64,000 nucleotides of DNA, from NCBI RefSeq assembly GCF_030013205.1, contig NZ_CP122648.1; one strand, written 5' to 3'. A program made the position numbers and the translations under genes. Numbering within the stretch: position 1 is the stretch's first letter; every line of letters begins with the position of its first letter. This DNA comes from Escherichia coli (GTDB taxonomy: Bacteria; Pseudomonadota; Gammaproteobacteria; Enterobacterales; Enterobacteriaceae). The notes below the pieces were generated by a model. It ran no database searches and was not told the origin of the DNA. It worked only from the letters and a program-made list of their open reading frames with translations. This document shows, piece by piece, positions 1 to 40,862 of this stretch.

Positions 1-1
1 C

Positions 2-493
2 TTCAGTATCACTGACAATCTGATGCTGGAGCCACAACTGCAGTACACCTGGCAGGGACTTTCCCTGGATGACGGCCAGGATAACGCCGGTTATGTGAAG
101 TTCGGGCATGGCAGTGCACAACATGTGCGTGCCGGCTTCCGTCTGGGCAGCCACAACGATATGACCTTTGGTGAAGGCACCTCATCCCGTGACACCCTGC
201 GCGACAGTGCAAAACACAGTGTGCGTGAACTGCCGGTGAACTGGTGGGTACAGCCTTCTGTTATCCGCACCTTCAGTTCCCGGGGTGACATGAGCATGGG
301 GACAGCCGCTGCCGGCAGTAACATGACGTTATCACCGTCACAGAATGGCACGTCACTGGACCTGCAGGCCGGACTGGAAGCCCGTGTCCGGGAAAATATC
401 ACCCTGGGGGTACAGGCCGGTTATGCCCACAGCGTCAGCGGCAGCAGTGCTGAAGGTTATAACGGTCAGGCCACGCTGAATGTGACTTTCTGA
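2..493 (+). CDS. Autotransporter C-terminal (beta-barrel) end, antigen 43/Flu-like; 5' part lies before the window
   Basis: ORF open to window edge, ends ...GQATLNVTF with stop at 491-493; terminal aromatic residue typical of outer-membrane barrels; resembles Ag43 C-terminus from memory. Confidence 0.6.
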   Translation, partial: FSITDNLMLEPQLQYTWQGLSLDDGQDNAGYVKFGHGSAQHVRAGFRLGSHNDMTFGEGTSSRDTLRDSAKHSVRELPVNWWVQPSVIRTFSSRGDMSMGTAAAGSNMTLSPSQNGTSLDLQAGLEARVRENITLGVQAGYAHSVSGSSAEGYNGQATLNVTF

Positions 494-515
494 TAATCAG
501 GTCACTCCCCTTCAG

Positions 516-545
516 GCCCCGGCCATCATGACCGGGGCTTTTTAC
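516..545 (+). terminator. Rho-independent terminator after autotransporter gene
   Basis: GC hairpin ccccgg/ccgggg followed by T-run. Confidence 0.5.
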
Positions 546-753
546 TTTCAGGGAGCAACAGATATGCCTGGTTGTACATCACGTTTATTGCCCGAAGGCC
601 CTTTTGCTGCCAAATGGCATCTGAATCGATCACAGTTTGACCGGTTATTACCCGATCCCGATGGGGTTATTGGGTGATCTCCTTCCATAAAAATACGCAG
701 CTCGCCAGTGAAGGGCTTCTCAGACAATAAACGTCATTCATTTCATCGGTCAG

Positions 754-786
754 GCCGCGTCTTCTCCGGGAGACGCGGCTTTTTCA
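754..786 (+). terminator. Second hairpin plus T-run upstream of DUF932-like gene
   Basis: gccgcgtct / agacgcggc stem followed by ttttt. Confidence 0.4.
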
Positions 787-820
787 TTTATACCGCTAAC
801 TCATTCATAAGGAGCAAATC

Positions 821-1639
821 ATGCGATTAGCAAGTCGTTTTGGTCATGTAAACCAGATACGCCGTGACCGTCCGCTGACACATGAAGAACTGATGCACTA
901 TGTACCCAGTATTTTTGGGGAAGATCGGCATACCTCCCGCAGTGAACGCTATGCGTACATTCCCACCATCACCGTACTGGAAAGCCTGCAGCGGGAAGGT
1001 TTTCAGCCATTCTTCGCCTGCCAGACCCGCGTGCGCGATCCGGGCCGCCGGGGATACACCAGACACATGCTGCGTCTGCGGCGGGCCGGGGAGATAACCG
1101 GACAACATGTCCCTGAAATTATTCTGCTCAACTCCCATGACGGTACCTCCAGCTACCAGATGCTGCCGGGTTACTTCAGATTCGTCTGCCAGAACGGCTG
1201 CGTCTGCGGTCAGTCTCTGGGGGAAGTCCGTGTGCCCCACCGGGGAAATGTGGTGGACAGAGTCATTGAAGGGGCTTACGAGGTAGTGGGCGTTTTTGAC
1301 CGGATTGAGGAAAAGCGTGATGCCATGCAGTCTCTGGTCCTGCCGCCACCGGCACGTCAGGCGCTGGCACAGGCGGCACTGACTTACCGTTATGGTGACG
1401 AACATCAGCCGGTCACCACCGCCGACATTCTGACGCCACGACGCAGGGAGGATTACGGTAAGGACCTGTGGAGTGCATATCAGACCATCCAGGAGAATAT
1501 GCTGAAAGGCGGGATTTCCGGTCGCAGCGCTAAAGGAAAACGTATCCACACCCGTGCCATTCACAGCATCGACACGGACATTAGGCTCAACCGCGCATTG
1601 TGGGTGATGGCAGAAACGCTGCTGGAGAGCCTGCGCTGA
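821..1639 (+). CDS. DUF932-family island protein (YfjQ/YafZ-like)
   Basis: 272-aa ORF with RBS aaggag; translation resembles K-12 cryptic-prophage YfjQ/YafZ proteins (recall). Confidence 0.65.
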   Translation: MRLASRFGHVNQIRRDRPLTHEELMHYVPSIFGEDRHTSRSERYAYIPTITVLESLQREGFQPFFACQTRVRDPGRRGYTRHMLRLRRAGEITGQHVPEIILLNSHDGTSSYQMLPGYFRFVCQNGCVCGQSLGEVRVPHRGNVVDRVIEGAYEVVGVFDRIEEKRDAMQSLVLPPPARQALAQAALTYRYGDEHQPVTTADILTPRRREDYGKDLWSAYQTIQENMLKGGISGRSAKGKRIHTRAIHSIDTDIRLNRALWVMAETLLESLR

Positions 1640-1730
1640 TGCTGTTTCCCTGAAAGTGCAGCCCTGACTCACGTCTGTACCAGTCCCCAGGCATTCTTCC
1701 ATTCATTTGCTTTTTATAAGGAATAATCTC

Positions 1731-2216
1731 ATGACAACCTCTTCGCATAATTCCACCACACCTTCTGTTTCCGTAACCGCTGCATCAGGGAATAACCAGT
1801 CTCAACTGGTTGCCACTCCCGTCCCTGATGAACAGCGCATCAGTTTCTGGCCGCAGCACTTTGGCCTCATTCCACAGTGGGTGACCCTGGAGCCCCGTAT
1901 CTTCGGCTGGATGGACCGTCTGTGTGAAGACTACTGCGGTGGTATCTGGAATCTGTATACCCTGAACAACGGCGGGGCATTTATGGCACCCGAACCGGAT
2001 GACGATGATGACGAAACATGGGTACTGTTCAATGCCATGAACGGTAACCGCGCTGAAATGAGCCCGGAAGCCGCCGGTATTGCCGCCTGTCTGATGACGT
2101 ACAGCCATCATGCCTGTCGTACGGAGTGTTATGCCATGACGGTCCATTATTACCGGCTGCGGGATTACGCCCTGCAGCATCCTGAATGCAGCGCCATTAT
2201 GCGCATCATCGACTGA
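1731..2216 (+). CDS. Antirestriction protein, KlcA/ArdB family (YfjX/YafX-like)
   Basis: ORF 1707-2216; start chosen at MTTSSH; acidic stretch DDDDDE; position before radC-like gene as in CP4-type islands. Confidence 0.6.
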   Translation: MTTSSHNSTTPSVSVTAASGNNQSQLVATPVPDEQRISFWPQHFGLIPQWVTLEPRIFGWMDRLCEDYCGGIWNLYTLNNGGAFMAPEPDDDDDETWVLFNAMNGNRAEMSPEAAGIAACLMTYSHHACRTECYAMTVHYYRLRDYALQHPECSAIMRIID

Positions 2217-2230
2217 GCCGGAGAAGCACA

Positions 2231-2707
2231 ATGCAACAACTTTCCTTTCTGCCCGGAGAGATGACAACCAGAGAGCGCAGTCTCATTCTGCGGGCCCTGA
2301 AAACCCTGGACCGCCATCTTCATGAACCCGGTGTGGCCTTCACCTCCACGCATGCGGCACGGGAATGGCTGATTCTGAACATGGCAGGACTGGAGCGGGA
2401 AGAGTTCCGGGTACTGTATCTGAACAACCAGAATCAGCTGATTGCGGGTGAAACCCTCTTCACCGGCACCATCAACCGCACGGAGGTCCATCCCCGGGAA
2501 GTGATTAAACGTGCCCTGTACCACAATGCCGCTGCCGTGATACTGGCACACAACCACCCGTCCGGTGAAGTCACTCCCAGTAAGGCAGACCGGCTTATTA
2601 CGGAACGTCTGGTACAGGCACTGGCCATGGTGGATATCCGGGTGCCGGACCATCTGATAGTCGGTGGCAGCCAGGTTTTCTCCTTTGCCGAACACGGTCT
2701 GCTTTAA
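2231..2707 (+). CDS. RadC-like JAB-domain protein (YeeS/YkfG/YfjY family)
   Basis: Motif HNHPSG...PS..D (JAMM-like) in translation; start at MQQLSFLPGE. Confidence 0.7.
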   Translation: MQQLSFLPGEMTTRERSLILRALKTLDRHLHEPGVAFTSTHAAREWLILNMAGLEREEFRVLYLNNQNQLIAGETLFTGTINRTEVHPREVIKRALYHNAAAVILAHNHPSGEVTPSKADRLITERLVQALAMVDIRVPDHLIVGGSQVFSFAEHGLL

Positions 2708-2775
2708 CCCGTCACCGTCACAACCACATCACACCTGTTTTCACTTTTATCTTCTGTCTTCAGAGGTATCCCACC

Positions 2776-2997
2776 ATGAAAATTATCACCCGTGGTGAAG
2801 CCATGCGCATTCACCGTCAGCATCCGGCATCCCGTCTTTTTCCGTTCTGCACCGGTAAGTACCGCTGGCACGGCAGCACTGAGGCATATACCGGTCGTGA
2901 AGTGCAGGATATTCCCGGTGTGCTGGCCGTGTTTGCTGAACGCCGTAAGGACAGTTTTGGCCCGTATGTCCGGCTGATGAGTGTAACCCTGAACTGA
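2776..2997 (+). CDS. YeeT/YkfH/YpjJ-family small protein (DUF987)
   Basis: 73-aa ORF MKIITRGEAMRIH... near-identical in my recollection to K-12 YeeT. Confidence 0.7.
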   Translation: MKIITRGEAMRIHRQHPASRLFPFCTGKYRWHGSTEAYTGREVQDIPGVLAVFAERRKDSFGPYVRLMSVTLN

Positions 2998-3015
2998 GTC
3001 AGGAAGGGAATTCTG

Positions 3016-3660
3016 ATGAGCAGAATTATCACCACCACCGTGTATACGCTGGATGAACTTTCCTGCCCGGCACGGGAAAAAGCCCGCGACGGGTACCGTC
3101 AGCATCATGCTGACAGCAACTGGTATGAAAACGTGTATGAAGACTTCAGGGAGGTCTGTGACATTTTCGGGATTAACCTCCGCCAGCGTGTTATCCGGCT
3201 CAGCAGTGGCAGGTTTATGGAAGAGCCGTGCATCTGGTTCAGCGGATTCTGCAGCCAGGGGGACGGAGCCTGTTTTGAAGGACGCTGGCACTGGCAGTCA
3301 GCAACAGCCAGGAGAATCCGGGAGTATGCCCCACAGGACCGTGAAATTCATCGTATCGCGGATGCCCTGCAGTCGGTACAGAAGCGTAACTTCTGGCAGT
3401 TACAGGCTGAAATCAGTCACCGGGGACGTTACTGCCATCCGTACAGCATGGATATCACCGTCACCCGGAACAGTCCGACTGGTCAGGTAATGACAACCGA
3501 TGCGGAAGCCGCTGTCAGCGAAGCCCTGCGCGACCTGGCCTTCTGGTTGTACCGTCAGCTGGAAAACGAGTACGACTGGCTGACCTCAGACGCCGCTGTG
3601 GATGAGGCCCTTCTCATCAACGAATACACCTTCACCGAAGCCGGTCTGCGCGCCGGCTGA
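3016..3660 (+). CDS. Hypothetical Cys/His-rich 214-aa protein, unassigned
   Basis: Clean ORF with RBS aggaagg 8 nt upstream of ATG; sits between yeeT-like and cbeA-like genes where K-12 clusters have no gene (recall). Confidence 0.5.
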   Translation: MSRIITTTVYTLDELSCPAREKARDGYRQHHADSNWYENVYEDFREVCDIFGINLRQRVIRLSSGRFMEEPCIWFSGFCSQGDGACFEGRWHWQSATARRIREYAPQDREIHRIADALQSVQKRNFWQLQAEISHRGRYCHPYSMDITVTRNSPTGQVMTTDAEAAVSEALRDLAFWLYRQLENEYDWLTSDAAVDEALLINEYTFTEAGLRAG

Positions 3661-3709
3661 CTCGTCATCGTTAAACTATCATTCACCGATTTTCTGTGAG
3701 GATTTTATC

Positions 3710-4078
3710 GTGTCAGACACACTCCATGAAACAAATTATCCCGACGACAACAACGACCGCTCCTGGTGGGGGCTACCCTGCACCGTGACGCCCTGTTTCA
3801 GGGCACGTCTGGTGCAGGAAGGGAACCGGTTGCATTACCTTGCAGACCGTGCCGGTATCAGAGGCCGGTTCAGCGACGCGGATGCGTACCATCTGGACCA
3901 GGCCTTTCCGCTGCTGATGAAACAACTGGAACTCATGCTCACCAGCGGTGAACTCAGTCCCCGCCATCAGCATACCGTCACGCTGTATGCAAAAGGGCTG
4001 ACCTGCGAAGCCGACACCCTCGGCAGTTGTGGCTACGTTTATATGGCTGTTTATCCGACGCCCGAAACGAAAAAGTAA
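3710..4078 (+). CDS. Type IV antitoxin, CbeA/YeeU/YfjZ/YafW family
   Basis: 122 codons from GTG 3710; translation closely matches K-12 CbeA (WWGLPCTVTPCF..., LYAKGLTC...) from memory. Confidence 0.75.
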   Translation: MSDTLHETNYPDDNNDRSWWGLPCTVTPCFRARLVQEGNRLHYLADRAGIRGRFSDADAYHLDQAFPLLMKQLELMLTSGELSPRHQHTVTLYAKGLTCEADTLGSCGYVYMAVYPTPETKK

Positions 4079-4167
4079 ATAATCAGAATAACCTTCTGCT
4101 CCGGCCAGGTGCTTTCACCACACCACTTTCCCATTTCTCATCTCTGCATATCAGGAAAATCTTCAGT

Positions 4168-4545
4168 ATGAAAACATTACCTGTATTACCCGGGCAGGCG
4201 GCCGGTTTACGCCCGTCTCCGGTTGAAATCTGGCAGACACTGCTTACCAGACTGCTGGACCAGCATTACGGCCTCACGCTGAATGACACGCCGTTTGCCG
4301 ATGAACGTGTGATTGAGCAGCATATTGAGGCAGGCATATCACTGTGTGATGCGGTGAACTTTCTCGTGGAAAAATACGCGCTGGTGCGTACCGACAAGCC
4401 GGGATTCAACGCCTGTACCCACTCTCAGTTAATAAACAGCATCGATATCCTCCGGGCCCGCCGGGCAACAGGCCTGATGACCCGCGACAATTACAGAACG
4501 GTGAACAATATCACCCGGGGTAAACATTCGGAGGCGAAACGATGA
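4168..4545 (+). CDS. Type IV toxin, CbtA/YeeV/YkfI/YpjF family (cytoskeleton inhibitor)
   Basis: MKTLPVLPGQAA... matches K-12 CbtA N-terminus and length (about 125 aa); directly downstream of the antitoxin. Confidence 0.75.
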   Translation: MKTLPVLPGQAAGLRPSPVEIWQTLLTRLLDQHYGLTLNDTPFADERVIEQHIEAGISLCDAVNFLVEKYALVRTDKPGFNACTHSQLINSIDILRARRATGLMTRDNYRTVNNITRGKHSEAKR

Positions 4546-5030
4546 AACTGACCCTGACACTGGAAGCCGACAGTATTAATGTGCAGGCACTGAACATGGA
4601 GCGAATTGTTGTTGACGTCGATGGTATTGAGCTCGCTGAACTGATTAATAAGGTCGCTGAAAACGGTTATTCACTCCGCGTGGTGGATGCTCCCGAACAG
4701 CAGACAACGGATTCTCCACCATCGTTTACGGCCCTTACCGGCATACGCTGCAGTACCGCACATATCACGGAAAAGGATAACGCCTGGCTGTACTCGCTGT
4801 CACACCAGACCAGTGACTTCGGTGAATCAGAATGGATTCATTTCACAGGTAGCGGATATCTGTTACGTACCGATGCGTGGTCATATCCGGTTCTGCGGCT
4901 TAAACGCCTGGGGCTGTCAAAAACGTTCCGTCGTCTGGTTGTCACACTCATCCAACGTTATGGCGTCAGTCTCATTCATCTGGATGCCAGCGCTGAATGT
5001 CTGCCGGACCTGCCCACTTTCGACTGGTAA
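4542..5030 (+). CDS. YeeW-like protein downstream of the toxin
   Basis: 162-aa ORF whose ATG overlaps the cbtA stop (ATGA); same position as yeeW in CP4-44-type clusters. Confidence 0.5.
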   Translation: MKLTLTLEADSINVQALNMERIVVDVDGIELAELINKVAENGYSLRVVDAPEQQTTDSPPSFTALTGIRCSTAHITEKDNAWLYSLSHQTSDFGESEWIHFTGSGYLLRTDAWSYPVLRLKRLGLSKTFRRLVVTLIQRYGVSLIHLDASAECLPDLPTFDW

Positions 5031-5041
5031 CCAGGAACAAC

Positions 5042-5239
5042 ATGAAATCATTAACCACAGAAACCGCACTGGATATTCTGATTGCGTGGCTACAAGACAA
5101 TATCGACTGCGAATCGGGAATTATCTTTGACAACGATGAGGATAGAACGGATTCGGCAGCACTGTTGCCCTGTATCGAACAGGCCAGAGAGGATGTCCGT
5201 ACCCTGCGTCAGCTGCAGTTTCTGCAACAGAACCGGTGA
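5042..5239 (+). CDS. Small acidic hypothetical protein (65 aa)
   Basis: ATG at 5042 preceded by aggaac; followed by a terminator. Confidence 0.35.
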   Translation: MKSLTTETALDILIAWLQDNIDCESGIIFDNDEDRTDSAALLPCIEQAREDVRTLRQLQFLQQNR

Positions 5240-5267
5240 GTCTTACTCACCAGACTTCATTCCACTG

Positions 5268-5300
5268 ACGCCAGCCTGAATACGGCTGGCGTTTTCGTTT
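5268..5300 (+). terminator. Rho-independent terminator
   Basis: acgccagcc / ggctggcgt hairpin followed by ttttcgttt. Confidence 0.5.
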
Positions 5301-5323
5301 ATCTGCAAAAAGGAATATCGATT

Positions 5324-6166
5324 ATGTCTGAAATCACAGCCTCTCGTCCGGAAGTGGTCAACGGGCATACGGACGTTATCTGCTCAACCAGTATCCGCCA
5401 CATTCTGGCTGTACGAAAGAGTACATTGCTGCAAATCGACACACTTATCCGGCAACTGGCTGAAATATCAGCAATGACAGAAAGTATTGGAGGTAAAACG
5501 GCTCTGGACTGGGCCATGAAACAGGATTTTCGCTGCGGTTGCTGGCTGATGGAGAAACCGGAAACCGCAATGAAAGCCATCACACGCAATCTTGATCGCG
5601 AACTCTGGCGTGATCTGATGCAACGTTCCGGGTTGCTGAGTCTGATGGATGCGCAGACCCGGGACACATGGTACAGGTCACTGGAATATGATAATTTTCC
5701 GGAAATCAGCGAAGCGAACATTCTGAGCACATTTGAACAACTGCACCAGAACAAAGATGAAGTGTTTGAACGGGGAGTGATCAACGTCTTCAAAGGGCTG
5801 AGCTGGGATTACAAAACCAACTCACCCTGTAAATTTGGCAGTAAAATTATCGTCAACAATCTGGTGAGGTGGGACCAGTGGGGATTTCATCTTATCAGTG
5901 GAATGCAGGCAGATCGCCTGGCTGACCTGGAAAGAATGTTGCATCTGCTCAGCGGTAAACCGATCCCCGACAACCGGGGGAATATCACCATTAATCTGGA
6001 TGACCACATACAGTCCGTTCAGGGTAAAGGACGCTATGAAGATGAGATGTTCATCATTAAATACTTTAAGAAGGGATCTGCACACATCACTTTCAAAAGG
6101 CTGGAGCTGATTGACAGAATTAACGATATAATAGCTAGGCACTTTCCTTCTGTGCTCTCAGCCTGA
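5324..6166 (+). CDS. Hypothetical 280-aa island protein (possibly DUF4942-like)
   Basis: ORF with RBS aaaggaa; last gene before the att repeat; family assignment is from memory only. Confidence 0.45.
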   Translation: MSEITASRPEVVNGHTDVICSTSIRHILAVRKSTLLQIDTLIRQLAEISAMTESIGGKTALDWAMKQDFRCGCWLMEKPETAMKAITRNLDRELWRDLMQRSGLLSLMDAQTRDTWYRSLEYDNFPEISEANILSTFEQLHQNKDEVFERGVINVFKGLSWDYKTNSPCKFGSKIIVNNLVRWDQWGFHLISGMQADRLADLERMLHLLSGKPIPDNRGNITINLDDHIQSVQGKGRYEDEMFIIKYFKKGSAHITFKRLELIDRINDIIARHFPSVLSA

Positions 6167-6276
6167 CCCCGAGTTTGATTCCCTTTCGATATCAAAAGGG
6201 ACTGCGGGTACAAAAGAGGGTACATCTTTCACCAAACCAAACAAAATAAACTAATATCAACATGATAGAAGCATTC

Positions 6277-6298
6277 TTCGATTCCGAGTCCGGCACCA
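6277..6298 (+). repeat. 3' fragment of tRNA-Phe (ttcgattccgagtccggcacca): island att direct repeat, not a full tRNA gene
   Basis: Matches T-arm/acceptor end of E. coli tRNA-Phe; no tRNA body upstream; accessory genes stop here and the K-12-like cadC upstream region follows. Confidence 0.7.
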
Positions 6299-6309
6299 AA
6301 TTCATATAA

Positions 6310-6340
6310 ACGGACCTCCACGGAGGTCCGTTTTTCGTTT
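6310..6340 (+). terminator. Rho-independent terminator (probably the native pheU terminator)
   Basis: cggacctcc / ggaggtccg hairpin followed by tttttcgttt. Confidence 0.6.
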
Positions 6341-6914
6341 CAGGACGCCACAATTTAAGCGTTCTGCCTAAAAATCATTTCTACCGAACTCAACCAAATT
6401 CTCCCCACAACACCAGCATTTTGCGGGTATATCCCAATTCGGGAAAATTTGTTCCTGAGCTATAGCGCTGACTGACGTGAAATGTCGTGCGACCCCGTGA
6501 TGCTGTTGAATGTCAAATGACGTCATCAGGAGCGTAACGCATCCATAAAGCACAACACCGGTCTGAACGCCGACTGATGAGATTTTCTGAATGAGAACAA
6601 AGAGAAATGTATCAGTCCGCTTGCTCATGCAAAGACTAACAATCCATAAAAATAGTAAGCGCGCCGGGCAATTTCCCATGGATTATTTTCTGAACATTTT
6701 TCTTTGGCAAAGATGATGAATTTTGATGATAAGGAATATTACTTCTGGTTCTCAGTAAAATCCTTTCGTAATACTATGTAATCAAGAAGTTTATGGCTGG
6801 TAAAAATAACGTCTTGCATTCACCAATAATATGTAAATAAAACCATCTATAGATGGTAAAAATAGGTTGTGGCAATTATCATTGCATCATTCCCTTTTCG
6901 AATGAGTTTCTATT

Positions 6915-8453
6915 ATGCAACAACCTGTAGTTCGCGTTGGCGAATGGCTTGTTACTCCGTCCATAAACCAAATTAGCCGCAATGGGCGTCAACTTACCCT
7001 TGAGCCGAGATTAATCGATCTTCTGGTTTTCTTTGCTCAACACAGTGGCGAAGTACTTAGCAGGGATGAACTTATCGATAATGTCTGGAAGAGAAGTATT
7101 GTCACCAATCACGTTGTGACGCAGAGTATCTCAGAACTACGTAAGTCATTAAAAGATAATGATGAAGATAGTCCTGTCTATATCGCTACTGTACCAAAGC
7201 GCGGCTATAAATTAATGGTGCCGGTTATCTGGTACAGCGAAGAAGAGGGAGAGGAAATAATGCTATCTTCGCCTCCCCCTATACCAGAGGCGGTTCCTGA
7301 CACAGATTCTCCCTCCCACAGTCTTAACATTCAAAACACCGCAACACCACCTGAACAATCCCCTGTTAAAAGCAAACGATTCACTACCTTTTGGGTATGG
7401 TTTTTTTTCCTGTTGTCGTTAGGTATCTGTGTAGCACTGGTAGCGTTTTCAAGTCTTGATACACGTCTTCCGATGAGCAAATCGCGTATTTTGCTCAATC
7501 CACGCGATATTGACATTAATATGGTAAATAAAAGTTGTAACAGCTGGAGTTCCCCGTATCAGCTCTCTTACGCGATAGGCGTGGGTGATTTGGTGGCGAC
7601 ATCACTTAACACCTTCTCCACCTTTATGGTGCATGACAAAATCAACTACAACATTGATGAACCGAGCAGTTCCGGTAAAACATTATCTATTGCGTTTGTT
7701 AATCAGCGCCAATACCGTGCTCAACAATGCTTTATGTCGGTAAAATTGGTAGACAATGCAGATGGTTCAACCATGCTGGATAAACGTTATGTCATCACTA
7801 ACGGTAATCAGCTGGCGATTCAAAATGATTTACTGGAGAGTTTATCAAAAGCGTTAAACCAACCGTGGCCACAACGAATGCAGGAGATGCTCCAGCAAAT
7901 TTTGCCTCATCGTGGTGCGTTATTAACTAATTTTTATCAGGCACATGATTATTTACTGCATGGCGATGATAAATCATTGAACCGTGCCAGTGAATTATTG
8001 GGTGAGATTGTTCAATCATCCCCAGAATTTACCTACGCGAGAGCAGAAAAAGCATTAGTTGATATCGTGCGCCATTCTCAACATCCTTTAGATGAAAAAC
8101 AATTAGCAGCACTGAACACAGAAATAGATAACATTGTTACACTACCGGAATTGAATAACCTGTCCATTATATATCAAATAAAAGCGGTCAGTGCTCTGGT
8201 AAAAGGTAAAACAGATGAGTCTTATCAGGCGATAAATACTGGCATTGATCTTGAAATGTCCTGGCTAAATTATGTATTGCTTGGCAAGGTTTATGAAATG
8301 AAGGGGATGAACCGGGAAGCAGCTGATGCATATCTCACCGCCTTTAATTTACGCCCAGGGGCAAACACCCTTTACTGGATTGAAAATGGTATATTCCAGA
8401 CTTCTGTTCCTTATGTTGTACCTTATCTCGACAAATTTCTCGCTTCAGAATAA
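6915..8453 (+). CDS. cadC: CadC, membrane-integrated ToxR-like transcriptional activator of cadBA
   Basis: 512 aa; N-terminal winged-helix DNA-binding domain, one transmembrane segment, periplasmic sensor; matches K-12 CadC. Confidence 0.95.
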   Translation: MQQPVVRVGEWLVTPSINQISRNGRQLTLEPRLIDLLVFFAQHSGEVLSRDELIDNVWKRSIVTNHVVTQSISELRKSLKDNDEDSPVYIATVPKRGYKLMVPVIWYSEEEGEEIMLSSPPPIPEAVPDTDSPSHSLNIQNTATPPEQSPVKSKRFTTFWVWFFFLLSLGICVALVAFSSLDTRLPMSKSRILLNPRDIDINMVNKSCNSWSSPYQLSYAIGVGDLVATSLNTFSTFMVHDKINYNIDEPSSSGKTLSIAFVNQRQYRAQQCFMSVKLVDNADGSTMLDKRYVITNGNQLAIQNDLLESLSKALNQPWPQRMQEMLQQILPHRGALLTNFYQAHDYLLHGDDKSLNRASELLGEIVQSSPEFTYARAEKALVDIVRHSQHPLDEKQLAALNTEIDNIVTLPELNNLSIIYQIKAVSALVKGKTDESYQAINTGIDLEMSWLNYVLLGKVYEMKGMNREAADAYLTAFNLRPGANTLYWIENGIFQTSVPYVVPYLDKFLASE

Positions 8454-8818
8454 GTAACTCCCGGGTTGATTTATGCTCGGCAATATTTGTTGTTGAGTTT
8501 TTGTATGTTCCTGTTGGTATAATATGTTGCGGCAATTTATTTGCCGCATAATTTTTATTACATAAATTTAACCAGAAAATATCCCGCAATCCATTGTAAA
8601 CATTGAATGTTTATCTTTTCATGATATCAACTTGCGATCCTGATGTGTTAATAAAAAACCTCAAGTTCTCACTTACAGAAACTTTTGTGTTATTTCACCT
8701 AATCTTTAGGATTAATCCTTTTTTCGTGAGTATTCTTAGCACCAGTTTGGTCTGGTCAGGAAATAGTTATACATCATGACCCGGACTCCAAATTCAAAAA
8801 TGAAATTAGGAGAAGAGC
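8454..8818 (+). promoter_or_regulatory. cadBA promoter region (Pcad) with CadC binding sites
   Basis: AT-rich 365-bp intergenic region between cadC and cadB; site positions not resolved. Confidence 0.5.
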
Positions 8819-10153
8819 ATGAGTTCTGCCAAGAAGATCGGGCTATTTGCCTGTACCGGTGTTGTTGCCGGTAATATGATGGGGAGCGGTATTGCATTAT
8901 TACCTGCGAACCTAGCAAGTATCGGTGGTATTGCTATCTGGGGTTGGATTATCTCTATTATTGGTGCAATGTCGCTGGCGTATGTATATGCCCGACTGGC
9001 AACAAAAAACCCGCAACAAGGTGGCCCAATTGCTTATGCCGGAGAAATTTCCCCTGCATTTGGTTTTCAGACAGGTGTTCTTTATTACCATGCTAACTGG
9101 ATTGGTAACCTGGCGATTGGTATTACCGCTGTATCTTATCTTTCCACCTTCTTCCCAGTATTAAATGATCCTGTTCCGGCGGGTATCGCCTGTATTGCTA
9201 TCGTCTGGGTATTTACCTTTGTAAATATGCTCGGCGGTACCTGGGTAAGCCGTTTAACCACTATTGGTCTGGTGCTGGTTCTTATTCCTGTGGTAATGAC
9301 AGCTATTGTTGGCTGGCATTGGTTTGATGCTGCGACTTATGCTGCTAACTGGAATACTGCGGATACCACTGATGGTCATGCGATCATTAAAAGTATTCTG
9401 CTCTGCCTGTGGGCCTTCGTGGGTGTTGAATCCGCAGCTGTAAGTACTGGTATGGTTAAAAACCCGAAACGTACCGTTCCGCTGGCAACCATGCTGGGTA
9501 CTGGTTTAGCAGGTATTGTTTATATCGCTGCGACTCAGGTGCTTTCCGGTATGTATCCGTCTTCTGTAATGGCAGCTTCCGGTGCTCCGTTTGCAATCAG
9601 TGCTTCAACTATCCTCGGTAACTGGGCTGCGCCGCTGGTTTCTGCATTCACCGCCTTTGCGTGCCTGACTTCTCTGGGCTCCTGGATGATGTTGGTAGGC
9701 CAGGCAGGTGTACGTGCCGCTAACGACGGTAACTTCCCGAAAGTTTATGGTGAAGTCGACAGCAACGGTATTCCGAAAAAAGGTCTGCTGCTGGCTGCAG
9801 TGAAAATGACTGCCCTGATGATCCTCATCACTCTGATGAACTCTGCCGGTGGTAAAGCATCTGACCTGTTCGGTGAACTGACCGGTATCGCAGTACTGCT
9901 GACTATGCTGCCGTACTTCTACTCTTGCGTTGACCTGATTCGTTTTGAAGGCGTTAACATCCGCAACTTTGTCAGCCTGATCTGCTCTGTACTGGGTTGC
10001 GTGTTCTGCTTCATCGCGCTGATGGGCGCAAGCTCCTTCGAGCTGGCAGGTACCTTCATCGTCAGCCTGATTATCCTGATGTTCTACGCTCGCAAAATGC
10101 ACGAGCGCCAGAGCCACTCAATGGATAACCACACAGCGTCTAACGCACATTAA
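8819..10153 (+). CDS. cadB: Lysine/cadaverine antiporter
   Basis: 444 aa APC-family transporter; matches K-12 CadB. Confidence 0.95.
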   Translation: MSSAKKIGLFACTGVVAGNMMGSGIALLPANLASIGGIAIWGWIISIIGAMSLAYVYARLATKNPQQGGPIAYAGEISPAFGFQTGVLYYHANWIGNLAIGITAVSYLSTFFPVLNDPVPAGIACIAIVWVFTFVNMLGGTWVSRLTTIGLVLVLIPVVMTAIVGWHWFDAATYAANWNTADTTDGHAIIKSILLCLWAFVGVESAAVSTGMVKNPKRTVPLATMLGTGLAGIVYIAATQVLSGMYPSSVMAASGAPFAISASTILGNWAAPLVSAFTAFACLTSLGSWMMLVGQAGVRAANDGNFPKVYGEVDSNGIPKKGLLLAAVKMTALMILITLMNSAGGKASDLFGELTGIAVLLTMLPYFYSCVDLIRFEGVNIRNFVSLICSVLGCVFCFIALMGASSFELAGTFIVSLIILMFYARKMHERQSHSMDNHTASNAH

Positions 10154-23291: not shown

Positions 23292-23942
23292 ATGACCCGC
23301 ACACTCAAGCCGTTAATTCTTAACACCGGCGCACTGGCGCTAACGTTAATCCTGATTTATACCGGCATTTCGGCCCGTGACAAACTCACCTGGCTGATGG
23401 AAGTGACACCGGTGATTATTGTCGTGCCGCTACTGCTTGCCACCGCTAAACGTTATCCGTTAACGCCGCTGCTCTATACGCTCATTTTCTTTCACGCCAT
23501 CATCCTGATGGTCGGCGGACAATACACCTACGCGAAAGTCCCCGTTGGTTTTGAGGTGCAGGAATGGCTGGGGTTGAGCCGTAATCCGTATGACAAACTG
23601 GGGCATTTTTTCCAGGGGCTGGTGCCTGCACTGGTGGCACGAGAGATCCTTGTGCGCGGGATGTACGTTCGCGGACATAAGATGGTGGTGTTTCTGGTCT
23701 GCTGCGTGGCGCTGGCGATAAGCGCGATGTATGAATTAATCGAGTGGTGGGCGGCGCTGGCAATGGGCCAGGGAGCGGATGATTTTCTCGGCACCCAGGG
23801 CGACCAGTGGGACACGCAATCCGATATGTTCTGCGCGCTGCTTGGCGCATTAACGACGGTGATATTCCTCGCTCGCTTTCATTGCCGCCAGCTACGGCGC
23901 TTTGGCTTAATCACCAGAGCGCCGGAAGCGATTACCCCTTAA
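23292..23942 (+). CDS. yjdF: Inner membrane protein YjdF, with a C-terminal tail that may differ from K-12
   Basis: 216-codon ORF; I recall K-12 YjdF as 209 aa; stop codon overlaps melA stop. Confidence 0.8.
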   Translation: MTRTLKPLILNTGALALTLILIYTGISARDKLTWLMEVTPVIIVVPLLLATAKRYPLTPLLYTLIFFHAIILMVGGQYTYAKVPVGFEVQEWLGLSRNPYDKLGHFFQGLVPALVAREILVRGMYVRGHKMVVFLVCCVALAISAMYELIEWWAALAMGQGADDFLGTQGDQWDTQSDMFCALLGALTTVIFLARFHCRQLRRFGLITRAPEAITP

Positions 23943-25294
23943 CGGTGCAACCAGCCAGGCAGCCAGTCGCCGTGGGCAGCAATCAAGTCGTCAACAAGAG
24001 CATATATTTCGTCAATGCCCAGCACGGCGGCAGTATGCGGGTCCATCATCGCGGCGTGGTAAACACGGTCGCGATTTTCCGTAAGAATGGCTTCGGTCAG
24101 CAGCGTCTGTACGTTGATGTTGGTTTGCATCAGGGCGGCCAGATGCGAAGGTAGCGTACCGACTTTGGTCGGCTGAATGCCATTAGCATCAACCAGACAG
24201 GCCACTTCCACACAACATCCTTGTGGCAGGTTATCAATCAATCCATCGTTACGGACGTTGCCGTAAATCACACTCGGCTCGCCAGTCCAGATAGCGTTCA
24301 TGATTGTGCTGGCATATTCCCGTGACGGTTTAATATCAATCCGGGAGGCGTTTTTATACTCCTCCAGCTCTTTATGCCAGTTCGCCAGCTGCTCGACGCA
24401 GCGTTTCGGGTACTCATCCAGCGGTACTTTATAACGCTCAATCAAATCCTCACGACCTGGCTTAATAAACCACGGTGTGTACTCAGCAAAATGTTCTGAC
24501 GATTCCGTGACGAAGTAGCCCAGCTTTTTGAACATTTCGTAGCGCACAATATTCTGGCAGCGAGTATTGCCATGAATATTCGGCTTCGGTGCCTGCCCTG
24601 CTTCATAAGCCGCCAGCAGTTCCGGGTAGAGATTCACGTAACTGCCGTCGGCGGTTTTGCGCTCCAGTTCCAGGTAAAACGCCATATGGTTGATACCTGC
24701 ACAACGGTAACGCAGCGTAGACGGGTCGATATTGAGGTCACGCGCCAGCTCTTCCGCCGTTCCCTGCACCGAATGGCACAGCCCTACCTGTTTGATATGC
24801 GGATAGCGGGCATACATCGCCCAGGTATTCATCGCCATTGGGTTAACATAGTTGAGCATGGTGGCATCGGGGCAGACTTCCGTCATGTCCTCGCAAATTT
24901 GCCACAGATGCGGAATGGTACGTAGCGCGCGCATAATACCGCCCGGCCCCAACGTATCGGCAATGGTTTGTTCCAGACCATGCCGCTTACAGACCTCGAA
25001 ATCAGTCACCGTGCAAGGTTCATAACCGCCAATCTGAAATGCCACCACGACAAAATCAGCATCCTGTAAGGCTTCTTTCTGTTGGGTGTGGCAGGTGATT
25101 TTGCCGCTGGCCCCTGCTGAATCCATCAGCTTACGCACCACAATGTGCGACTCTTCCAGGCGGGTGGGATCAATGTCCATCAGGGCAATATGCGCCGTTT
25201 TCAGCGCCTCGCGATGGAACACATCACCAAGAATATTTTTAACGAAAATCGTCGAACCAGCGCCGATAAATGTAATTTTGGGTGCAGACATCAT
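23939..25294 (-). CDS. melA: Alpha-galactosidase (melibiase)
   Basis: 451 aa MMSAPKITFIGAGS... ending GWLHR; NAD-binding GxGS motif. Confidence 0.95.
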   Translation of the reverse strand: MMSAPKITFIGAGSTIFVKNILGDVFHREALKTAHIALMDIDPTRLEESHIVVRKLMDSAGASGKITCHTQQKEALQDADFVVVAFQIGGYEPCTVTDFEVCKRHGLEQTIADTLGPGGIMRALRTIPHLWQICEDMTEVCPDATMLNYVNPMAMNTWAMYARYPHIKQVGLCHSVQGTAEELARDLNIDPSTLRYRCAGINHMAFYLELERKTADGSYVNLYPELLAAYEAGQAPKPNIHGNTRCQNIVRYEMFKKLGYFVTESSEHFAEYTPWFIKPGREDLIERYKVPLDEYPKRCVEQLANWHKELEEYKNASRIDIKPSREYASTIMNAIWTGEPSVIYGNVRNDGLIDNLPQGCCVEVACLVDANGIQPTKVGTLPSHLAALMQTNINVQTLLTEAILTENRDRVYHAAMMDPHTAAVLGIDEIYALVDDLIAAHGDWLPGWLHR

Positions 25295-40109: not shown

Positions 40110-40164
40110 GGTGATGCTGCCAACTTACTGATTTAGTGTATGATGGTGTTTTTGAGGTGCTCCA

Positions 40165-40440
40165 GTGGCTTCTGTTTCTATCAGCTGTCCCTCCTGTTCA
40201 GCTACTGACGGGGTGGTGCGTAACGGCAAAAGCACCGCCGGACATCAGCGCTATCTCTGCTCTCACTGCCGTAAAACATGGCAACTACAGTTCACTTACG
40301 CCGCCTCTCAGCCCGGTACGCACCAGAAAATCATTGATATGGCCATGAATGGCGTCGGATGTCGCGCCAGTGCACGCATTATTGGCGTTGGCCTCAACAC
40401 GATTTTCCGCCACTTAAAAAACTCAGGCCGCAGTCGGTAA
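40165..40440 (+). CDS. insA: IS1 InsA
   Basis: 91 aa [23 protein letters not shown]... zinc-finger/HTH repressor. Confidence 0.95.
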
Positions 40441-40862
40441 CCTCGCGCATACAACCGGGCAGTGATGTGATTGTCTGCGCTGAAATGGACGAACAGTGGG
40501 GCTACGTCGGTGCTAAATCACGTCAGCGCTGGCTGTTTTACGCGTATGACAGGATGCGGAGGACGGTTGTGGCGCACGTCTTCGGTGAACGCACTCTGGC
40601 CACACTGGAGCGTCTTCTGAGCCTGCTGTCGGCCTTTGAGGTCGTGGTATGGATGACGGATGGCTGGCCGCTGTATGAATCACGCCTGAAGGGAAAGCTG
40701 CACGTTATCAGCAAGCGTTATACTCAGCGCATTGAGCGGCATAACCTGAATCTGAGACAACATCTGGCAAGGCTGGGACGGAAGTCACTGTCGTTCTCAA
40801 AATCGGTGGAGCTGCATGACAAGGTCATCGGGCATTATCTGAACATAAAACACTATCAGTAA
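40359..40862 (+). CDS. insB: IS1 insB frame; transposase InsAB' is made by -1 frameshift from insA
   Basis: 167-codon frame overlapping insA 3' end; slippery A6C at 40416-40422. Confidence 0.9.

Follow-up and report, generated by a model that had tools for sequence, protein, structure and literature searches.

Genomic islands with intP4 integrases that occupy the tRNA-Phe genes (GI-pheV/GI-pheU, for example PAI-CFT073-pheU, PAI V of strain 536, the LEE variants at pheU, and SHI-3) are the closest described relatives of the locus analyzed here, with which they share both the tRNA-Phe site and the integrase family. A 22-bp repeat with a one-base shift has been reported for pheU/pheV inserts, and a DUF4942 gene, the 'Z1226 putative methylase' of the literature, lies near their 3' end (PMC6174562), as it does here. 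The attR string of these islands, TTCGATTCCGAGTCCGG-CACCA, is identical to ours, the same 22 nt being printed in Table 1 of PMC11537424. The cargo differs, with CBASS, Qat, Hha and Ag43 here versus P pili, aerobactin or LEE in the known islands, and the 31.1 kb of the present island is at the small end of their size range. Related gene sets are found in the K-12 elements CP4-44, CP4-57 (at ssrA) and CP4-6 (at thrW), and a related attachment site in phage P4.

The window, i.e. the whole stretch of E. coli DNA that was analyzed (64,000 nucleotides), begins in foreign DNA (positions 1-6276), which is followed by a copy of the tRNA-Phe 3' end (6277-6298), a terminator and the cadC upstream region. 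Positions 1-6298 are almost certainly the right (attR) end of a P4-integrase ('CP4') type integrative genomic island of about 31 kb, inserted in the 3' end of pheU in a porcine-type E. coli. A sequence-only reading had placed a tRNA-Phe island end next to cadC; this was correct to the base, and every testable part of that interpretation held. An island of this type at pheU beside cadC is ordinary and already well described, and its structure is known rather than new. Our result has little significance beyond correct annotation; it fixes the exact right boundary (6298) of a pheU island in one porcine-type E. coli. The features are as follows.

1-493, + strand: 3' part of a gene for an autotransporter adhesin of the Ag43/Cah type, covering the final ~160 codons with the beta-barrel (hit to NCBIfam NF033177 auto_Ag43 with E 6.5e-110, profile positions 793-948 of 948)
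821-1639, + strand: DUF932 protein, YfjQ/YafZ homologue (74-75% protein identity to CP4-57 yfjQ and CP4-6 yafZ; PGAP name; PHROG 12094)
1731-2216, + strand: antirestriction protein, YfjX/YafX homologue (67-68% identity to the CP4-57 and CP4-6 homologues; PHROG 10132 anti-restriction protein, E 1e-62)
2231-2707, + strand: RadC-like JAB-domain protein, YeeS homologue (95% identity to CP4-44 YeeS; NCBIfam TIGR00608 above cut-off)
2776-2997, + strand: DUF987 protein, YeeT homologue (96% identity to CP4-44 YeeT)
3016-3660, + strand: 214-aa protein, function unknown (E 1e-35 to PHROG 5162, itself without assigned function)
3710-4078, + strand: YeeU/CbeA-family type IV antitoxin, GTG start (88% identity to K-12 CbeA; PGAP name)
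4168-4545, + strand: CbtA-family toxin (91% identity to K-12 CbtA; PGAP name)
4542-5030, + strand: DUF5983 protein, the K-12 YeeW protein in full length (60% identical to YeeW, confined to the first 64 aa)
5042-5239, + strand: DUF957 protein (PGAP name; CP4-44 retains just a 30-codon remnant)
5324-6166, + strand: DUF4942 protein, last gene of the island (Pfam PF13708, E 2.6e-66; weak match to PHROG 6263 DNA methyltransferase, E 1e-15)
6203-6226, + strand: two tandem 12-nt arm-type repeats, CTGCGGGTACAA and AAGAGGGTACAT, putative integrase arm-binding sites of the attachment site
6277-6298, + strand: attR core, 22 nt copied from the tRNA-Phe 3' end, one G short
6299-6732, + strand: remains of an earlier P4-type integrase locus (pseudogene yjdQ in K-12), aligned with the int region at attL
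6308-6333, + strand: Rho-independent terminator (11-bp stem with 6 G-C pairs, 4-nt loop, T tail)
6915-8453, + strand: cadC, the intact core gene nearest to the island on its right

The attR core TTCGATTCCGAGTCCGGCACCA corresponds to the tRNA-Phe 3' end TTCGATTCCGAGTCCGGGCACCA minus one G, i.e. the last 23 nt less one. It occurs a single time in the window, at 6277-6298 on the + strand, even with three mismatches allowed, and it was matched in 0 of 100 shuffles; the 22-bp copy had been announced at exactly these coordinates. No tRNA was found anywhere in the window by ARAGORN, and no tRNA match at E <= 1 was obtained with Rfam in 1-9000. There is thus no intact tRNA gene at 6220-6300: the tRNA-Phe cloverleaf is incomplete there, with the last 22 nt only. 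A private mutation or an assembly error as the origin of the missing G was rejected, since five further pheU islands have the identical one-G-short variant, as do published pheV islands (PMC11537424). The shortening of the repeat by one base is conserved in the pheU/pheV island family and is not a sequencing error. The 22-mer is short and imperfect, and could on that account be read as a decayed tRNA pseudogene or a chance match with no attachment site. The shuffles argue against this reading, which is refuted by two further observations and retains a negligible probability: similarity to empty-site genomes breaks exactly at the first base of the 22-mer, and the same variant terminates six independent pheU islands, counting the window, together with many pheV islands (PMC11537424).

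The empty site is found in K-12, where pheU is joined straight to the sequence from 6299 onward. The gap between pheU and cadC is 616 bp, without island, in agreement with the distance of about 0.6 kb that had been anticipated, and the gene set of 1-6276 is absent from this position. Among the 5,426 complete E. coli genomes, DNA matching positions 1-6340 is present in 5,417, at a median of four places each, and the same island end and junction in 710. Most genomes of a rank-spread sample drawn from all matching genomes lose similarity exactly at 6277 (query base 378 corresponds to window position 6277). That similarity stops precisely at the tRNA repeat speaks against a module ancestral to E. 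coli at this position, with K-12 representing a deletion. The G+C content is 53% in the island part versus 51% in the rest of the window, and base composition was set aside as uninformative.

On the right side, the terminator that had been noticed after the tRNA copy is real and strong. It is the one that follows pheU in empty-site genomes, and it is identical in K-12, directly after pheU. The region up to cadC had been taken for core sequence. It is indeed common to all E. coli, but is itself an old integrase scar (yjdQ), comprising an int upstream region, the first ~10 int codons (6462-6491) fused to int codons ~359-420 (6496-6646), and int downstream sequence. The 22-nt core plus the first part of the fossil (6277-6431, the fossil part being 6299-6431) shows 89% identity to the DNA upstream of int at attL, and 6494-6732 shows 71% identity to the int 3' end. 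In many genomes, an integrase pseudogene is annotated at this place by PGAP. The cadC-side 'core' thus already holds an older integrase scar in every E. coli examined, namely K-12, the window and the five other island-bearing strains.

The left 25 kb of the island lies outside the window and its content is deduced from two chromosomes that are identical over positions 1-6340. Positions 1-6340 are 100% identical to eight pig E. coli chromosomes, two of which, ETEC1748 (Belgium) and O139:H1 P15-25 (France), were read leftwards. In both, dicD and the island are separated by an intact tRNA-Phe gene (pheU) and a gene for a 420-aa tyrosine integrase, at a distance of 31.1 kb leftwards; an integrase and an intact tRNA had been predicted beyond the window. 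The island measures 31,100 bp in ETEC1748. Over 97% of its length, this integrase matches phage P4 Int at 55% identity; it contains the Arm-DNA-bind_3, Phage_int_M and Phage_integrase domains, and has a full-length, intact reading frame; IS fragments adjoin it in the island annotation. As variable cargo to the left of the window, the two genomes carry type I CBASS and QatABCD anti-phage systems, whose proteins were matched by PADLOC, and an annotated Hha. The Ag43 gene, which runs off the left edge of the window, is annotated in ETEC1748 as full-length (2847 bp). The cargo in these two genomes thus includes two anti-phage systems and an adhesin.

The attachment site is laid out like attP and int in P4, with two tandem arm repeats, ~55 nt, a core that matches the 3' end of a tRNA, ~115 nt, two further tandem arm repeats and an inverted repeat at the start of int. 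By inspection against the annotated P4 attP, arm-type repeats flank the core on both sides in our island, the partner repeats at attL being located between pheU and int. Those in the window lie 51-74 nt left of the core, compared with 54-77 nt for the annotated attP arm repeats left of the P4 core. The arm motif is GGGGCAYA in P4, which targets leuX, and GGGTAYA in the island; the GGGTA core of the latter is invariant in the six pheU island ends. By analogy with P4, the island tyrosine integrase would bind the arm repeats on either side of the core, itself a copy of the tRNA 3' end, and this core would then recombine with the chromosomal tRNA. Such an event would leave the intact tRNA and the integrase on the left (attL, outside the window) and, on the right, the 22-nt partial copy followed by the original pheU terminator and cadC. 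The two ends differ in having GGG on the left versus GG on the right, and the base 10 nt past the tRNA is C at the left end but A at the right end and in K-12. Because of these differences, strand exchange may be placed within about 14 nt around the CCA end, assuming that the incoming element had GG and C.

With a P4-like integrase and arm repeats of P4 geometry, the region could be suspected to belong to a complete P4-like satellite, of which it would be one end and which a helper phage can still package, the more so as the island also encodes a protein of the YfjI family and a small, possibly AlpA-like helix-turn-helix protein. This is very improbable: over the full 31 kb as annotated by PGAP in the two genomes, no P4 replication, capsid-size or Psu/Delta/Sid gene is named, nor any primase gene or cos site; the integrase is adjoined by IS fragments; and in size and cargo (Ag43, CBASS, Qat) the island goes beyond the 11.6-kb P4 genome. 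That the integrative island is now a fixed, immobile remnant in this lineage, inherited vertically or moved by homologous recombination, with att sites that are mere relics, is a serious possibility to which we give somewhat less than even chances. The left and right repeats are imperfect, differing by one base, and single mismatches can reduce excision by orders of magnitude (PMC11537424). The IS fragments abutting the integrase and the occurrence of a near-identical island in several porcine strains, which fits clonal inheritance, point in the same direction, while the intact integrase frame and the conserved arm repeats point in the other. The question bears on present activity and not on the nature of the structure. 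The island may have entered this lineage through homologous recombination of its flanks rather than by fresh site-specific integration.

The cryptic-prophage-type genes seen in 1-6276 are the Ag43 3' end and ten further CP4-type genes, all within 1-6166. The remark that this content differs from the K-12 CP4 clusters, however, put the emphasis wrongly: the module is the same conserved one, differing only in genes that K-12 has lost or truncated. RadC, DUF987, CbeA and CbtA share 88-96% protein identity with YeeS, YeeT, CbeA and CbtA of CP4-44, and DUF932 and the antirestriction protein 67-75% with their homologues in CP4-57 and CP4-6. CP4-44 (flu-yeeR-yeeS-yeeT-cbeA-cbtA-yeeW) has the same gene order from Ag43 through CbtA, with about 88-93% DNA identity. 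It is not located at pheU, carries yeeR in place of the DUF932 and antirestriction genes, and lacks the 214-aa gene and DUF4942; its yeeW and DUF957 genes are truncated, and because of the yeeW truncation the match of our DUF5983 protein to YeeW is confined to its first 64 aa. The distal modules of CP4-57 and CP4-6 show the same order (GTPase, DUF932, antirestriction, RadC, DUF987, antitoxin, toxin) with 57-82% protein identity, but these elements use other attachment genes and a different integrase branch (IntA, 35% identical), and are without Ag43, DUF5983, DUF957 and DUF4942. Judged by these similarities, the gene set is the CP4-44/CP4-57/CP4-6 module in a more complete form than in K-12, a conserved distal module of such islands.

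The predicted CbeA/CbtA type IV toxin-antitoxin genes are adjacent and in the same order as K-12 cbeA and cbtA, and a role of the pair in stabilising the island is plausible. Of the ten module proteins, eight received no name from NCBIfam. The 214-aa protein has no Pfam or NCBIfam match, and none of the three CP4 elements of K-12 has its gene; the alignment of CP4-44 by blastn skips positions 3041-3685. By analogy with the leading region of conjugative plasmids, the attR-proximal module (DUF932, antirestriction, RadC, DUF987, the 214-aa protein, CbeA/CbtA, DUF5983, DUF957 and DUF4942) could be imagined as one functional cassette that protects and anchors the island on its entry into a new cell. 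We regard this as unlikely; if true, the 214-aa protein would be an undescribed component of the cassette. Finally, a sub-threshold Rfam match to MicL at 481-546 (20 bits versus a gathering score of 56, under relaxed thresholds) was rejected as a small RNA and corresponds to the terminator hairpin after the Ag43 gene.

Positions 1-6298 of the window almost certainly form the attR (right) end of a genomic island of the P4-integrase type, which would have arisen by site-specific integration at pheU. Its boundaries and the empty site are established, as are the family of its integrase, the architecture of its repeats and the homology of its gene module. The features of this end and of the region up to cadC are as follows.

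1-493, + strand, 3' part (~160 codons) of a gene for an Ag43 autotransporter
821-1639, + strand, DUF932 gene
1731-2216, + strand, antirestriction protein gene
2231-2707, + strand, RadC-like protein gene
2776-2997, + strand, DUF987 gene
3016-3660, + strand, gene for a 214-aa protein of no family, between the DUF987 and antitoxin genes
3710-4078, + strand, YeeU/CbeA antitoxin gene
4168-4545, + strand, CbtA toxin gene
4542-5030, + strand, DUF5983 gene
5042-5239, + strand, DUF957 gene
5324-6166, + strand, DUF4942 gene
6203-6226, tandem pair of 12-nt repeats (CTGCGGGTACAA, AAGAGGGTACAT), 51-74 nt left of the core
6308-6333, terminator with an 11-bp stem
6915, cadC start

The 22-bp copy of the tRNA-Phe 3' end proposed from the sequence alone, with a terminator and cadC beyond it, is located at 6277-6298. 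This string, TTCGATTCCGAGTCCGGCACCA, occurs once in the 64 kb with up to three mismatches allowed, was matched in none of 100 shuffles, and equals the tRNA-Phe 3' end (TTCGATTCCGAGTCCGGGCACCA) except that its G-run is one G shorter. A private mutation does not account for this, as the identical 22-mer is present in five further pheU islands, from unrelated strains and with divergent terminal sequences, and in published pheV islands: the same string, as TTCGATTCCGAGTCCGG-CACCA, is listed as the attR of many of them (PMC11537424, Table 1). Inserts at both pheU and pheV with a 22-bp repeat and a one-base shift have also been described (PMC6174562), and pheU is named as an island site in reviews (PMC7545054; PMC11537424). 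The finding of the sequence-only reading is thus real and was correctly read; the structure is a textbook one, and its exact attR string was already in print.

In K-12 MG1655, which lacks the island, pheU is directly joined to the sequence found 3' of the 22-mer and lies 616 bp from cadC, in agreement with the predicted 0.6 kb. Among 5,426 complete E. coli genomes searched with window 5900-6700, the entire junction was covered in 710. In most of 40 records sampled at even rank steps from the matches, the match started at query base 378 (window 6277), where tRNA-Phe is annotated. The island interpretation stands because the gene set is absent from this position in island-free K-12 and no intact tRNA gene lies at 6220-6300: ARAGORN detected no tRNA across the window, and Rfam none within 1-9000.

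Eight complete chromosomes match window 1-6340 with 100% identity; seven are from pigs, and one is from an O139:H1 strain of a domestic pig. The intact tRNA-Phe and P4-type integrase expected beyond the left edge are present in ETEC1748 (Belgium) and, with the same arrangement and an identical integrase protein accession, in O139:H1 P15-25 (France). In ETEC1748 the relevant features are:

4538885-4538960, intact tRNA-Phe, directly after dicD
4539158-4540420, tyrosine integrase of 420 aa, after tRNA-Phe
4570060, end of the attR repeat
L002 42151-44062 and L001 851-5410 (loci left of the window), two-gene type I CBASS and complete QatABCD

From the tRNA-Phe, integrase and attR-repeat coordinates, this island measures 31,100 bp. 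Its integrase has an intact reading frame with Arm-DNA-bind_3, Phage_int_M and Phage_integrase domains, and shares 55% identity with phage P4 Int across 97% of its length, but only 35% with K-12 IntA of CP4-57. A full P4-like satellite is unlikely, as no P4 hallmark genes are annotated in the island.

The non-coding end of the pheU island spans 110 bp (6167-6276) and includes the tandem repeats. At attL, the left end, the pheU-int interval carries TGTGGGTATAAT, TGCGGGTATACC and, close to the int start, an inverted copy. The annotated P4 attP has the same overall layout, with arm-repeat pairs 54-77 nt left and 113-136 nt right of the core and an inverted arm repeat overlapping the int start. 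Its motif reads GGGGCAYA in P4; in the island motif, the GGGTA part is invariant across six pheU island ends. By this analogy, the repeats at 6203-6226 and at attL are putative integrase arm-binding sites. The attL has GGG, and C ten bases beyond the tRNA; attR has GG, and A at that position, as in K-12. If the incoming element had GG and C, strand exchange would fall within ~14 nt around the CCA end. The island may still excise, its integrase frame being intact, but the tRNA-end repeats at its two ends differ by one base, and single mismatches can lower excision by orders of magnitude (PMC11537424).

The gene content had been described as different from the K-12 CP4 clusters. It is instead an ordinary CP4 module, in the same gene order, in a more complete state. 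Protein identities to CP4-44 are 95% (RadC-like, YeeS), 96% (DUF987, YeeT), 88% (antitoxin, CbeA) and 91% (toxin, CbtA); those to CP4-57 and CP4-6 are 74-75% for DUF932 (YfjQ, YafZ) and 67-68% for the antirestriction protein. CP4-44 lacks DUF4942 and the 214-aa gene (the blastn match jumps over window 3041-3685), retains DUF5983 (yeeW) for its first 64 codons alone, and has a mere remnant of DUF957; K-12 thus differs by loss. DNA matching 1-6340 is found in 5,417 of the 5,426 genomes, and the median number of sites in each is four. The 214-aa ORF has no family match in Pfam or NCBIfam and corresponds to PHROG 5162, of unknown function. CbtA/CbeA may have a stabilising role for the island. A sub-threshold Rfam match to MicL at 481-546 scores 20 bits, where the gathering score is 56, and reflects nothing more than the terminator hairpin that follows the Ag43 gene.

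Left of the window, the island of ETEC1748 and P15-25 contains IS fragments, Hha, a YfjI-family protein, a YeeP-like GTPase, a type I CBASS (oligonucleotide cyclase, E 9e-177; 2TM effector, E 2e-82) and QatA-D, each of these four with a strong PADLOC match. Since it carries both CBASS and QatABCD, the island is also a defence island. E. coli defence systems are documented to reside in mobile elements at tRNA hotspots (PMC10121019). The Ag43 gene measures 1527 bp in P15-25 (L008 7230-8756) versus 2847 bp in ETEC1748, the island being otherwise identical; an internal passenger-domain deletion may explain the difference.

The spacer 6299-6732, common to the window and K-12, lies between the island end and cadC. 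Window 6277-6431 shows 89% identity to the tRNA end and int-upstream DNA of the live island, 6462-6491 encodes IALTDVKCRA (MALTDAKIRA in the integrase), 6496-6646 aligns with integrase residues ~359-418, and DNA similarity to the integrase locus extends to 6732. The spacer is thus the fossil of a P4-type integrase locus, in which the int upstream region and about 10 N-terminal codons are followed by codons ~359-420, some 350 codons having been deleted internally. The present island is inserted upstream of this older remnant, which was overlooked in the sequence-only reading and is already known from annotation, part of it being pseudogene yjdQ in K-12 and many genomes having it marked by PGAP as an integrase pseudogene.

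Elsewhere in the window, melB is deleted (~23938-23960): the melA stop codon lies within about 20 nt of the yjdF 3' end, where about 1.66 kb with melB separates them in K-12. This is a common polymorphism, since 1,264 of the 5,426 genomes share the junction. An IS1 copy occupies ~40164-40861 in the crfC-yjdM interval, as annotated in the identical ETEC1748 record.
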